This document shows positions 5,001 to 40,226 of a DNA stretch of 64,000 nucleotides, piece by piece; position 1 is the first letter of the stretch, and each line of letters opens with the position of its first letter. The translations under genes and the position numbers were made by a program. This DNA is from a virus. The stretch lies in IMG/VR virus record IMGVR_UViG_3300022777_000031, positions 10,204 through 74,203 of that record, one strand, 5' to 3'. The notes beneath the pieces are model-generated. The model was not told where the DNA came from and did not search any database. It saw only the letters and a list, made by a program, of their open reading frames with translations.

Positions 5001-5200
5001 AGTGCGTCTAATGATAGAGTAAACTCGCCTGATGACAGGCGCATAAAGTTGGTTACGATTGACATATCATGCGGATCGGCGCAAGTGCGTGGTTAAGAGC
5101 GTACACATCAACGCTAACCGATTCGCGCCAATAAAAGGGCAAAACACTTTCAAGTATTCCCTGCACCTCTGCTTGAAAGCTTAAAGCCCCATGACGTAGA
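5001..5200 (+). ncRNA. Candidate structured non-coding RNA
   Basis: ORF-less region between a promoter-like motif and a terminator; nested stems GGCGC/GCGCC, GGTT/AACC, AGCGT/ACGCT, GGGC/GCCC, CTTTCAAG/CTTGAAAG. Confidence 0.3.
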
Positions 5201-5235
5201 AAAAGGACGGCTGCTCGTCGGCGGCCGTCCTTTTC
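5200..5235. terminator. Bidirectional intrinsic terminator
   Basis: AAAAGGACGGC...GCCGTCCTTTT with A and T tracts, between convergent units. Confidence 0.75.
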
Positions 5236-6339: not shown

Positions 6340-9136
6340 TATCATGTTTTTCCATGACTTTTTCTACGATTCCTGCTTCTATCGTTTTCTGTTCAACTTC
6401 TTCAGTGGAGATTCCTTTATTGACTACATCTGTAATCATCTTCTTTTTGTTGATTAGCTCCCACATCCATTCGTCTATTGTATCTTCAGCAAGTAGGAAG
6501 TATACGTTCACCGAGTCTTCTTGGCCTATTCTATGTGTTCTGTCTTCAGCTTGAACTGTTTCTGCCCAAGTCCAAGGGATCTCCACAAACGCAACATTGG
6601 AAGCTTCGGTTAAAGTAATTCCGACTCCACCAGCTTGAATGTTGAGCACAAGCAAGTCGTGTTCGCCGTTTTGAAACTCTTCAACGATCTCTCCACGACG
6701 GTCTGCATCCACGCTTCCTGTGATCTTTGGGCAACCGAACTCTTCTGCCAGCGCTTCGGTCGTGTCTGTGTAGTGGGCGAAAAGCAGTAGAGGCTCGCCG
6801 GATTCGGTGAAGTTGCGAATCCAGTTCTTCGCTTCTTTGTATTTTCCTTGACTTGTGACTTGCCGCAGCTCATTGATTTTTACGAGGTGTTCGGCGTTCA
6901 TGGCACGGCGTACCCTTGCCTCTGCGTGGCGCTCCATATGCGCTTCCTTGAGCGGCTCTGACAGGTGCTCAATTTGCTTCCGAAACTCGTCGTCGTTTTT
7001 GTATTTCTTCCGCAAGTGATCTGCCAAGTTTTCCTCCACGTCTTCATACTTGCTTCGGTTATCAATCTCAAGCTCGACGGTGGTGCGCTGCTTATCGGGA
7101 AGTTCATCAAGGATTTCGTCATCTTCTTTGTTTCGCCTTACGTAGCAGTTTCCCGTGAGCCGTTCGTGGAGTTCATCAAGATTTGAGGCTCCAGAGATGT
7201 CCCACCTTCCGAACTGAGACTCTTGGCGGTTGCAGTAGCGTTCTGTAAACTGCATCCATCCTCCAAACGTGTCTTTGAACACGCCCAAGATTTTGAGCTG
7301 ATTGATAATCTCGCTTGGCTGGTTGATGACAGGCGTTCCCGTAAGAAGAATACGGTAAGGGATGCCTTTGGAAATCTTCCGTACGGCTTTACTTCGCTTC
7401 GCAGAGTTGTTTTTGAGCTTGTGGCTTTCGTCGCAGATAATCGCGCCAAAGTCTTTCTCCTTGAACTTTTCTGTGAACTTGTAAACCAAAGAGTACGTGA
7501 CGATGTTCACGCTTCCACGAAAGTCCGTGTGGTTTCCACTTTTTATCGTTTTCACTGCACGGCGAGGGATCCACGTGTTCCACTCTTTTTCCCAGTGGCT
7601 TCGCACTGCAGCGGGAACCACGCAAAGCACAGGGTAGGCGTCAAGGTGCTGAACGGCGCCAATCGCTTCAACAGTGTTGTGCGTAACCACGTAGTCATCG
7701 GTTACGTAAAGACTGTCTCCCGCTTCAACAGATATGCATTGGGCTTCTTCGGTCCCGACTTTTTCTATGCTTTCTATCGTTCTGCACGGCGGTCCTTGTG
7801 GATCTTGAAGTTTCTCTTTTTTCCGATCAAGACGGAAGGGCTCCATATCAAGAGGAAGTTTTGCGTAAACCCTATGTCGGTCTTGACCTTTTTTCTTTTT
7901 GCCATTATAAGTGTATGTGGCTTCGCATGTATGCAAGCTTGCAGTTCCTCCGAGAGAACGAACCATTTCTTGAACGTCTTCGGAAAGCTCTTTTGAAGCA
8001 GAGCTGAAGGTTACGCCGCTTCCTTGAATAGAACCATCCGTGTCAAATAGTCCTTGAAGAACTGCGAGACGAACTTGTGGCGTTCCGTATTTGTATTTGT
8101 CGGGAACGAACTTGTGTTCGGAGTTTTTCAACAATCCCCCTTCACGAAGTGCAGATTGAACGATGTTTTCTTCGGTTCTTTCTCCGTAGGTCACATTATA
8201 GTCATATCCAGATGCGTGAGAAAGAGAAGTTTTTTCGGGTAGAGACGTTTCAAGTTCTTCAACAAGTTGTTCGTCCTGTGAAGAAAATCTAATGTGTTCT
8301 TTTCTCAATGAACCATCTCCGATAAGCAATCCGAGAGCATAGGGATCAATGTTGTACTCTTCGCTTCTATCAAACTTCACAGGTTCTTTAATGAGTGGAG
8401 CAAACCATTTCTTATTTTTGTTCTCTCCGTTGTAGCGAAGATCGCCGATCAGCTCTTCGGTGGTTTTGATTTTGTGGTATCCTCGGTTACGGCCATTGTT
8501 TGTTTGCACGTGCCAAAGGTGTTCTCCACAAGCACGGGTTTTTGCTCCGTGAGAAAATGTGATTTCGTATATTTCTTTTTCACCTTGAGGATATACGCCA
8601 GTGACCTTTGTTGGATTTCCGTCGCGACCGATCACTTTGTCACCGGGTTGTATGTCTCGCATTTTTTTCCAACCTTCCGGAGTGAGCACTTTTGCGTCAA
8701 GGGGTTGCGCTTTCCCCAGGCCCATTTCGTCACCGATAATGACCCGCTCGTTTTTCTCAATGTACTCGACGGCAGCCCGTTGGTACTCGCGAAGTTGCAT
8801 TCCTTTCGCTGTGCCGTATACACGGTCAAGGCTCGACTTTGCTCCGGTGGCGAGAGTCCGGTTGGTTTCTTCTCGCTTTCGCTCTTCCTCGAACTCTTCT
8901 CGAAGCTCTTTGATCATGTTCTCGATCTGGTCCGGCAAGGTATCGACGCCGAACTCGTTGCAGAAGCTCAGAAACTTCGCGGCGTTCTCGCGAGTATTGA
9001 GTGGGATATGCCAATCTTCCGAGTCCGGTTGGTAGTCTCTGCCGGGAATCTTCTTCACGGCGTTGACCTTATTCCAACTGAAGTCGTCGGAGAAGTTGAC
9101 TTTTACCCACTCTTTGTTGATACGTGAAAGTTCCAT
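6335..9136 (-). CDS. SNF2/SWI2-family (HARP-like) helicase containing an intein
   Basis: LREYQ, GDEMGLGK|T, DESH, LLTGTP and QAEDRTHRIGQ motifs. Confidence 0.92.
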   Translation of the reverse strand: MELSRINKEWVKVNFSDDFSWNKVNAVKKIPGRDYQPDSEDWHIPLNTRENAAKFLSFCNEFGVDTLPDQIENMIKELREEFEEERKREETNRTLATGAKSSLDRVYGTAKGMQLREYQRAAVEYIEKNERVIIGDEMGLGKAQPLDAKVLTPEGWKKMRDIQPGDKVIGRDGNPTKVTGVYPQGEKEIYEITFSHGAKTRACGEHLWHVQTNNGRNRGYHKIKTTEELIGDLRYNGENKNKKWFAPLIKEPVKFDRSEEYNIDPYALGLLIGDGSLRKEHIRFSSQDEQLVEELETSLPEKTSLSHASGYDYNVTYGERTEENIVQSALREGGLLKNSEHKFVPDKYKYGTPQVRLAVLQGLFDTDGSIQGSGVTFSSASKELSEDVQEMVRSLGGTASLHTCEATYTYNGKKKKGQDRHRVYAKLPLDMEPFRLDRKKEKLQDPQGPPCRTIESIEKVGTEEAQCISVEAGDSLYVTDDYVVTHNTVEAIGAVQHLDAYPVLCVVPAAVRSHWEKEWNTWIPRRAVKTIKSGNHTDFRGSVNIVTYSLVYKFTEKFKEKDFGAIICDESHKLKNNSAKRSKAVRKISKGIPYRILLTGTPVINQPSEIINQLKILGVFKDTFGGWMQFTERYCNRQESQFGRWDISGASNLDELHERLTGNCYVRRNKEDDEILDELPDKQRTTVELEIDNRSKYEDVEENLADHLRKKYKNDDEFRKQIEHLSEPLKEAHMERHAEARVRRAMNAEHLVKINELRQVTSQGKYKEAKNWIRNFTESGEPLLLFAHYTDTTEALAEEFGCPKITGSVDADRRGEIVEEFQNGEHDLLVLNIQAGGVGITLTEASNVAFVEIPWTWAETVQAEDRTHRIGQEDSVNVYFLLAEDTIDEWMWELINKKKMITDVVNKGISTEEVEQKTIEAGIVEKVMEKHDI
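7676..8710 (-). mobile_element. Class 3 intein (345 aa) with LAGLIDADG endonuclease, in the helicase Walker A motif
   Basis: GLGK|AQPLDAKVLTP...VVTHN|T; Ala1 plus W (EHLW), C (AQCISV), T (VTHN) triplet; LGLLIGDG and LQGLFDTDG motifs. Confidence 0.88.
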
Positions 9137-38349: not shown

Positions 38350-38784
38350 ATGGAAATATCCAGAGGCGACGCCGTTCTTATTGAAGGCACTCGCCACGAA
38401 GGCGAAGAAGGTCGGGTGGTTGGATTTGACGGAGATTGCGCTGATCTTGACATTTTCGGCAGTCCGGGCAAGACTCGTTCGGTTCTGACAAAGTATCTCG
38501 TTGACAGCCCGTTTACCGAAAACGAAGATTGGAGCAGCGAGTTTTCCGACGACGGGCTCGTTGATTGGAATAAGCAGTATCAGCCGAGCGTTCCGTTGGA
38601 AGAGTTTGACGAAGAAGACCGGGTTGAAGTGGTGGATAGTAACGACGAACGGTTTATCGGCGCAACCGGAAGAGTGCATGACGCAGAAAAGATTAACGGA
38701 GAGTGGTCCGTGATGGTTTTTCTTGATATGCCTTGGGACCGCAACCGGGACTTTGGGGTAAGTGACCTCAAGAAGATTAGATGA
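38350..38784 (+). CDS. Tandem SH3/KOW-like domain protein
   Basis: Two repeats of GD.V....G..G.V.... Confidence 0.6.
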   Translation: MEISRGDAVLIEGTRHEGEEGRVVGFDGDCADLDIFGSPGKTRSVLTKYLVDSPFTENEDWSSEFSDDGLVDWNKQYQPSVPLEEFDEEDRVEVVDSNDERFIGATGRVHDAEKINGEWSVMVFLDMPWDRNRDFGVSDLKKIR

Positions 38785-38785
38785 A

Positions 38786-38828
38786 CCCGGAACAAACTCT
38801 TGCGTATGGGGTATAAGAACACGCAATA
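38786..38828 (+). promoter_or_regulatory. Second promoter-like repeat, copy 2 (upstream of tmRNA)
   Basis: CCCGGAAC-N17-GTATAA-GA-ACACGCAATA. Confidence 0.6.
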
Positions 38829-39383
38829 TCAACAAAGTTCTTTATACTTATAGAAGCGAGAAGAGGCAAACCCCTTGCGGTAAGGTCCAATCCTCGCTGT
38901 ACATGGGACTGACACGGATTCGACGGGGATCGCGGAGTAAGTGTCACGGCTTGGCGCAGCATGTGAGCGCCACAAATAAGTGAATCATGAATCATAGTTG
39001 GCAACAACGCTAACTACGAAGCCGCCGGGTTCACGGCGGAGGACTTCGCTACGATGGATGGCGAGAGCCTCTATCACGGCGAGCGCGAGCTTGTCCGTGC
39101 GTAACGGAGTCGGGACGCACAAGCGTCCCTTCCATCCGGACCTCGACGCCGATAGAGAAAGTGCGAAACAGGCTTTGCCATGACGCACTGTGTTCGGGTG
39201 ACACCTTATCGGCAGATCGCCATAACTGGCGCCGCCCTTTTCGTGGGGTGACTTGTAAAGAATAGAAAACACGAAATAGACCGCCACTACCTTCTGCGTC
39301 GGAAGGATGAGCGGTGAACCAATCCGACGCTATGGCCGTGAGTAACATGACGCTGCGAAGGATCTTCGGACACGGGTTCGACT

Positions 39384-40049
39384 TAATGGTCGCACTTGAA
39401 ATTTAAGTGAAAAATGACGCTCAAGCGGTGAACGCTGAAATGCCAACGCTGCGCTAAAATCATCTGGAAACGGATGACAAACGCCCAGAGACTTCGGAAT
39501 ATGCTTCAAGCTTGAAAAAGTTTTTTGTGTGTTCCGGGATGAAAAAATTCTTCTTGGAGCTTGAGCTTACGTTCTTTAACTTCGGTGGAGTATTTGCCGT
39601 TTTTTGGAGTCAAGTCACGATAATGTTCAACGATAAGTTTAGACCGATGAAGCTTTTCTTTTTCTTTAAGAAAAGTTTGAATTTCAGATAAAAAGTCTAC
39701 AGCGTCGTTGAAAGTGAGACTCCAAGAATAAGAAGTTTTGTGAGACTTTTTGTAAGTCTTGTGTTTGCTAATTGAACCGCCATAGTTCTCTTCCATAAAT
39801 TCTAGAAGCTCTCGACTTGTGGAAGAAACTGATACAACCGGATGCCTAAATTCGGTGTTGTTTCGGTTATTAGCAAGAGTAATAGTTCCTTCACCGTCAA
39901 TTATTCCAGCAGCGTAAGCAAGTTTGAGTTCATATTTTTTCATAAATGCGTCAAATTTTGGTTTTGGATGTGTGTTAATACGTATGTTGTCCAAAGCTAA
40001 AATTATGGTATAGTCCACTCCATAACAAAAAATAAGTTATGGGTAAGTG
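39384..40049 (+). mobile_element. Group I self-splicing intron in the tmRNA T-loop
   Basis: P1 CGACU-UAAU-GGUCG with a U-G splice pair; P4/P5 GCGGT..GCTGC; P7 CAGAGACT and GGTATAGTCC; P9 CCATAAC/GTTATGG; terminal G 40049. Confidence 0.88.
39506..39943 (-). CDS. Single-motif LAGLIDADG homing endonuclease encoded antisense inside the intron
   Basis: LAYAAGIIDGEGTI..VSVSSTSRELLEFMEENYGG..YSW; lies between the two P7 strands. Confidence 0.9.
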   Translation of the reverse strand: MKKYELKLAYAAGIIDGEGTITLANNRNNTEFRHPVVSVSSTSRELLEFMEENYGGSISKHKTYKKSHKTSYSWSLTFNDAVDFLSEIQTFLKEKEKLHRSKLIVEHYRDLTPKNGKYSTEVKERKLKLQEEFFHPGTHKKLFQA

Positions 40050-40166
40050 TCCCGTCAGTTCCAGACTCCAAATAGGAACAACCGTCACGAGGTTGGAGTC
40101 GTAAGTAACTTATAGAGTGAAACCAATAGTTCCTAACAGTGAGTATCTTTGCGGAGACGCAGAACT

Positions 40167-40197
40167 CGCCCCGACCCCCCAAAGTCGGGGCGTTTCT
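40167..40197 (+). terminator. Intrinsic terminator downstream of tmRNA
   Basis: CGCCCCGAC/GTCGGGGCG followed by TTTCT. Confidence 0.65.
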
Positions 40198-40226
40198 GTA
40201 TCTGTATCATACATTTACATTTTGCT

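Follow-up and report, generated by a model that had tools for sequence, protein, structure and literature searches.

Which bond does a group I ribozyme cut when the pair that usually marks its 5' splice site has been replaced? The locus described here raises this question. The window (a 64,000-nt stretch of an 86-kb linear IMG/VR virus record, itself ~54% complete) contains a phage tmRNA gene that carries a group I intron with a LAGLIDADG gene, an identification of which we are nearly certain (Table 1). Among 50 related introns, the base at -1 (T-loop position 59) is invariably a U opposite a guide G (50/50), whereas the homologous register in the window is occupied by a C-G pair (C39382-G39389) and a U.G wobble is found one pair further (U39383.G39388). 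As a gene form, the locus is one more phage example of a catalogued class; the junction is its useful part. Here, two rules for 5' splice sites come into conflict in a natural intron, one based on the U.G wobble and the other on location within P1. Its splicing could also inform how homing introns cope in alleles that lack a U at -1 and would bear on both the C-G class of tRNA introns and the tolerance of tmRNA for an 8-nt T-loop.

Table 1. Coordinates of the split tmRNA gene, its intron and neighboring elements within the window
Feature	Position	Strand	Description
Candidate phage promoter motif ATACTTATA	38844..38852	+	upstream of tmRNA gene; putative function
tmRNA gene, split	38905-40063	+	1159 nt
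tmRNA 5' exon	38905..39382	+	acceptor 5' strand, tag frame, T-stem 5' strand, T-loop to C59
Tag reading frame	39000..39104	+	34 codons plus stop
Group I intron	39383..40049	+	667-nt insert at position 7, flanked by T-loop C59 and U60; a slip to U39383 would excise 666 nt
P1	39379..39392	+	strands 39379-83/39388-92, 4-nt loop; C39382-G39389 at family register, U39383.G39388 one pair further
P2	39393..39409	+	shortened, 6-7 pairs, GNRA cap missing
Core, 5' half	39415..39494	+	P3 5' strand, P4-P5-P6-P6a, P7 5' strand
P7.1 helix	39496..39535	+	overlaps final ten codons of antisense endonuclease gene
Single-motif LAGLIDADG homing endonuclease gene	39506..39943	-	145 aa, ATG at 39943; in P7.1 region
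Core, 3' half	39948..40049	+	P3 3' strand, 16-pair P8, J8/7, P7 3' strand, P9, P9.0, G40049
CATAAT hexamer	40002..40007	-	promoter role unsupported
tmRNA 3' exon	40050..40063	+	U60, T-stem 3' strand, acceptor 3' strand, discriminator A40063
Precursor 3' trailer hairpin	40064..40100	+	directly after discriminator
Terminator-like hairpin with T-run	40167..40200	+	

The assignment of the gene as a tmRNA, already made in a first-pass annotation of this DNA, is borne out by the standard hallmarks: an alanine acceptor stem (38905-38911 / 40056-40062) with G3.U70 and discriminator A40063, a T-arm (T-stem 39372-39376 / 40051-40055), a shortened D-loop, and a resume context with an open tag frame. Rfam RF00023 matches 38913-39385 (E 4.7e-16, 44.6 bits), a score just below the gathering score because the tmRNA 3' end is cut off. 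CCA is not encoded, and a search of the 86-kb record for the joint complement of T-stem and acceptor gave a single + strand match, at 40051. The tag is unusually long, but homologous tags of 30, 35 and 36 codons in three related phages (L254, L255 and L260) indicate that length is a family trait. Members of this long-tag family have an acidic core, AGFTAED, in common and most are missing the typical terminal AA. The trailer hairpin is likewise kept in L260 (LR756508.1), with a compensatory change. ARAGORN made no call on the in-silico spliced gene for any junction and also missed the unspliced gene; since at default settings it also misses the intron-less genes of L254 and L255, its silence reflects the divergence of the family. 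Alanylation, SmpB binding and trans-translation are predicted functions of the window tmRNA. No smpB gene was found in G000, G001 or G002, and SmpB is assumed to be supplied by the host.

Both the ribozyme core and the landmarks named in the first-pass annotation (the tmRNA ends, the U39383.G39388 pair of P1, both P7 strands and P9) could be located. The core is complete from P1 to P9.0, with P3 at 39415-20/39948-53, P7 at 39488-94/40011-16, P9 at 40020-42 and P9.0 at 40017-19/40046-48, followed by the terminal G40049; it thus comprises the P3-P7 and P4-P6 domains with a G-binding pair, P8 and P9. Searched for in order, the core motifs gave one match in the genome and none in 2000 shuffles, and P3 and P9.0 exhibit compensatory changes across ~48 related introns. 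Rfam Intron_gpI yielded no match to the window intron at E <= 10, but it is also blank for the relatives L004, L005 and L007, so the model is insensitive to this intron family. The closest relative, a sister intron residing in a different tmRNA (L002), shares 92% identity with the window intron in one core half, 88% in the other and 85% in the endonuclease gene, and the differences between the two introns include paired changes in P2, P6a, P7.1, P8 and P9. Exact-pattern scans of IMG/VR for sister introns returned none. From its sequence, the ribozyme core is intact and the intron probably still splices.

The boundaries of the inserted DNA can be read from intron-less alleles. Three related phages have them: L260, and L254 and L255, in both of which the gene is syntenic with the tail tube. 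Their identity to the window tmRNA after splicing is 54-69%, and the T-loop has 7 nt with C59 in each. Because of this loop, the insert comprises the 667 nt between nucleotides 59 and 60, with the 3' exon starting at U60 (position 7), and by the same comparison U39383 is intron base +1 rather than exon. A contig from a second sample links 39296 to 40158 across only 131 letters, which are too few to hold the intron, and G001 and G002 are without the endonuclease. In runs X1 and X2, a co-occurring tmRNA allele departs from the consensus right after the D-loop bases, with a loose end at window 38898; it could hold an insertion outside the T-loop, although only 30 letters are visible. That the intron entered this gene is shown by the intron-less alleles, by its AT-rich composition (GC 37% vs 57% in the 5' exon) and by the presence of its sister in another tmRNA. 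The element is a mobile intron of the position-7 type, its P7.1 region housing an I-CreI-type endonuclease gene in antisense, and it reached the tmRNA gene of a halophile-like phage presumably through endonuclease-driven homing. The recipient allele had C rather than U at T-loop position 59 and the guide sequence of the intron was left unadjusted, so that the usual splice-site wobble became a C-G pair. In the simplest history, the intron would have homed into a C59 allele and this base would have escaped co-conversion; endonuclease cleavage on the 3' side of the insertion site would account for such an escape.

This arrangement also settles part of an earlier puzzle. The first-pass annotation had calculated that splicing at U39383 and G40049 would create an 8-nt T-loop, and its arithmetic is correct; from this it had proposed either an atypical T-loop or a non-standard 3' splice site. 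Neither proposal holds, since the native loop has 7 nt and the 3' site is standard, yet an 8-nt product may still be formed. A native 8-nt loop in this phage family is ruled out by the 7-nt intron-less alleles. A displaced 3' splice site, with U40050 or G40047 as terminal base, was rejected as well: P9.0 directly precedes G40049, its pairs covary among relatives, and the 3' exon of every relative starts with U. Neither is this a position-8 intron, in which the 3' exon begins with C61 directly after the terminal G, as U40050 lies between G40049 and the T-stem.

The bond most likely to be cut is the one after U39383, because the sole remaining wobble of P1 lies one pair further and the tetraloop ruler of P2 has been lost. 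Ligation to U40050 would then yield a tmRNA with an 8-nt T-loop. The P2 cap is reportedly, according to Michel and Westhof, the ruler that fixes the 5' splice site (the rule of 12), and in 48/50 relatives a P2 GNRA loop is found exactly 12 steps from the U59.G pair at -1; the window and L002 instead have a shorter P2 without GNRA. Doudna and colleagues are said to have found in 1989 that cleavage by the Tetrahymena ribozyme follows the U.G pair when it is moved within P1. Furthermore, two position-8 introns (L133 and L161) have an identical five-pair P1 ending in U.G, and intron-less viral tmRNA genes with 8-nt T-loops exist, among which the loop of L270 is exactly the predicted one. For the Tetrahymena ribozyme, a G-C pair at -1 lowers docking ~100-fold at neutral pH (PMC13692252). 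The docking penalty, the missing ruler, the likeness to position-8 P1 helices and the natural 8-nt loops together favor the slip, and on these grounds we consider slippage to U39383 with an 8-nt T-loop product to be an evenly balanced prospect. The fuller proposition, that a U59-dependent intron in a C59 allele slid its 5' splice site by one base to the next U.G pair and thereby yields a working tmRNA with an 8-nt T-loop, is offered more tentatively. If it were true, a genuine position-8 intron would arise once the 3' exon had lost a single U.

The natural 8-nt loops are few, with only two distinct viral sequences found, either of which could be an assembly error. The gene in L270 (2007-2385, minus strand) is a complete intron-less viral tmRNA known from a single record. 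Two other viral contigs, L269 (minus strand, near 5142-5235) and L271 (near 8158-8250), contain a tmRNA-like gene of ~95 nt that consists of the tRNA-like domain only, with the coding part missing, and has an 8-nt T-loop.

The foremost alternative, a possible outcome to which we nonetheless give minority weight, is that the same element keeps the register of its family; the cut would then follow C39382, in a Watson-Crick C-G pair, at a lower rate, and would restore the 7-nt T-loop. Such a cut rebuilds exactly the loop of the three intron-less relatives, and U39383.G39388 would serve as a P1 extension that is later replaced by U40050.G39388 as P10. By homology the -1 base sits at position 59 in all 50 relatives, the +1 pair of which is U.G in 24 (a second wobble), C-G in 19 and U-A in 7; the window intron alone has C-G at -1 followed by U.G. 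L002 also argues for the family register: it, too, is without the ruler, and of its two neighboring U.G pairs it needs the lower one to rebuild a 7-nt loop. Other contacts may therefore hold the register, which counts against the slip. This near-identical intron, with U.G at both registers, is a ready control for the window junction. In addition, Barfod and Cech reportedly observed in 1989 that a U-to-C change at -1 slowed Tetrahymena splicing while its accuracy was kept, and natural C-G introns are on record (Leu.3Cg, discussed below), for which splicing at that pair is a prediction. Against a cut at C39382 stand the ~100-fold penalty, the adjoining wobble that would compete with it, the lost P2 ruler, and the fact that a C at -1 faces A rather than G in the 15 known tmRNA introns that have one. 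A mixture of 7-nt and 8-nt products is possible.

It is also conceivable, albeit improbable, that splicing is poor or absent and that the phage tmRNA is crippled, the element being kept only through its endonuclease. The tmRNA of a phage would probably be dispensable, and the combination of C59 with a guide G was not found again either in IMG/VR contigs or among the metagenome matches listed, which suggests that it is short-lived; a scan for other C59 introns returned nearly all chance matches plus two position-8 introns among the matches listed. Conversely, the core helices and both tmRNA exons are intact, the changes relative to L002 are paired, and the tag frame is open and conserved, although intactness is weak evidence here, as the insertion may be recent. 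Least credible by far is that the true base at C39382 is T, misread in sequencing or assembly, and that the intron is an ordinary U.G position-7 one: a single run covers this base and is possibly the source of the record itself, but a contig (depth 9) is without difference over 38700-39419, and C59 is native in all three related alleles and in 25/31 Rhodothermales ssrA genes.

Among known systems, T-loop introns in tmRNA were called known but rare in the first-pass annotation, and this is a fair description: the intron form accounts for 883/97,179 sequences, 36 with an endonuclease gene (PMC11915505). The founding position-7 case is that of Clostridium botulinum (Nawrocki et al. 2025, PMC11915505), whose tmRNA intron self-splices (PMC2729099), and 19/23 founding cases have their endonuclease gene in the P7.1 region (PMC11915505). 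The window intron has in common with this class a 3' exon starting from U60, a terminal G, an endonuclease gene in P7.1 and an intron of <700 nt; it differs in having C opposite G at -1 and P2 without a GNRA cap, and in being phage-borne. Its gene exceeds in length the longest one listed (1152 nt; 1116 nt for the intron form) (PMC11915505). The -1 pair in the tmRNA database is U.G or, in 15 sequences, C opposite A (PMC11915505); a C.A pair is offered by no register of the window intron. The locus is thus a variant within the catalogued arrangement, and we found no description in the literature of a position-7 tmRNA intron that combines C-G at the splice register with a wobble next to it and the lack of a P2 ruler.

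Position-8 introns have been reported only from the Saprospiraceae (PMC11915505). P1 in introns of this kind, including L133 and L161 found here, matches that of the window in all five pairs, with U.G as the last one, and likewise follows a C59 loop. Their 3' exon, however, starts from C61, which keeps the loop at 7 nt; they also have a different type of ribozyme core and carry their inserted gene downstream of P9. L133 (minus strand, from ~942 downward) is a phage tmRNA with such an intron and an antisense LAGLIDADG gene after P9. The intron of L161 (4283-5040) contains an antisense ORF after P9 and a run of A instead of G before the 3' exon, and could be either a terminal-A intron or a damaged one. 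A third point of comparison is Leu.3Cg, which consists of 72 tRNA-Leu introns of Proteobacteria with C-G at -1 (Williams 2020, doi 10.1101/2020.01.27.920355). It has the Watson-Crick pair at the homologous position, where splicing is likewise a prediction; it differs in its location within a tRNA anticodon loop and in that no competing wobble has been described. A related phage intron, in L007 (minus strand from 3128), has an extra hairpin of ~30 nt within its P1 loop.

The antisense endonuclease gene proposed in the first-pass annotation is an intact ORF of 145 aa with a match to Pfam LAGLIDADG_3 (PF14528) above the cut-off (E 1.9e-5). Its product has one LAGLIDADG helix with the catalytic acid, the alpha-beta-beta-alpha-beta-beta-alpha fold and a conserved lysine; the AlphaFold model (pLDDT 93) has I-CreI as its top Foldseek matches (TM about 0.68), and the family-invariant residues D16, E18 and K97 are kept. 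The protein is 83% identical to P0002 and the gene has a dN/dS of 0.16 (vs L002). An alternative GTG start at 40018 was rejected, since both the homologues and the database record have the ATG at 39943 as their start. I-CreI, I-MsoI and I-Vdi141I have in common with it the fold (TM 0.6-0.69), one motif per chain, E18 and K97, but they are only 14-22% identical, and the window enzyme is encoded antisense. It belongs rather to an ssrA-associated family, whose members, encoded within or next to tmRNA introns, are ~50% identical to it. No characterized member of this family was found. Among the in-intron relatives, 16 are antisense and 3 sense, so that antisense is the usual orientation; this survey of position and orientation leaves out L084 and L109, which are false matches. 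At ~30 loci (among L005 and L055-L121), the tmRNA intron is short and ORF-less, and a member of the same endonuclease family is encoded beyond it, downstream of the tmRNA gene.

By analogy with known families, the endonuclease would be made from a separate antisense transcript and should act as a homodimer. The CATAAT box that the first-pass annotation placed upstream of it is physically present on the minus strand (40007-40002), while its role as a promoter found no support: the hexamer occurs in 31 copies in the genome, about chance level, a promoter scan detected no adequate -35 element at this box, other antisense relatives are without it, and it overlaps P8/J8-7, where sequence is constrained by the ribozyme. 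The P8 loop and 40235-40206 are other candidate regions for the start of an antisense transcript. In the antisense-endonuclease introns of eight relatives (L007, L009, L044, L045, L048, L050, L051 and L054), the strand opposite P8/P3 supplies a Shine-Dalgarno sequence whose distance from the ATG is constant, while the window, L002, L011 and L013 have an A-rich leader instead.

As for its target, the enzyme is expected to cleave the T-arm DNA of relatives that co-infect and are without the intron; judging from its context, cleavage would take place near the insertion site. The rebuilt 24-bp target has 2 differences vs L260, 6 vs L255 and 5 vs the L002 exons, compared with 4-7 vs the 31 Rhodothermales ssrA genes. 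As the family tolerates varied T-stems, cleavage of host or competitor ssrA, which the first-pass annotation had raised, is plausible, with Rhodothermales as host being a guess, and the presumed target site of the family is conserved across bacteria. A pattern scan for intron-less targets matched solely an unrelated phage, L124.

The record encodes a T4-like tail tube (profile search), and by both tail tube and tmRNA its nearest GenBank record is LR756508.1, an uncultured 484-kb phage. Its proteome is acidic (D+E 17%, median pI 4.8), which suggests a salt-adapted bacterial host; our guess of a Rhodothermales host combines this with a 44% tail-tube match to RM378. The motif upstream of the tmRNA gene is likely a phage promoter: the 86-kb record contains it six times without mismatch, each time on the + strand (window 2597, 25146, 38844 and 40984, plus two outside the window). 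A short conserved element also precedes the tmRNA gene in the window (38862-38895), L254 (2680-2720) and L255 (4228-4258); in the window it reads GGCAAACCCCTT, then AGGTCC, and can fold into a hairpin with an internal loop.
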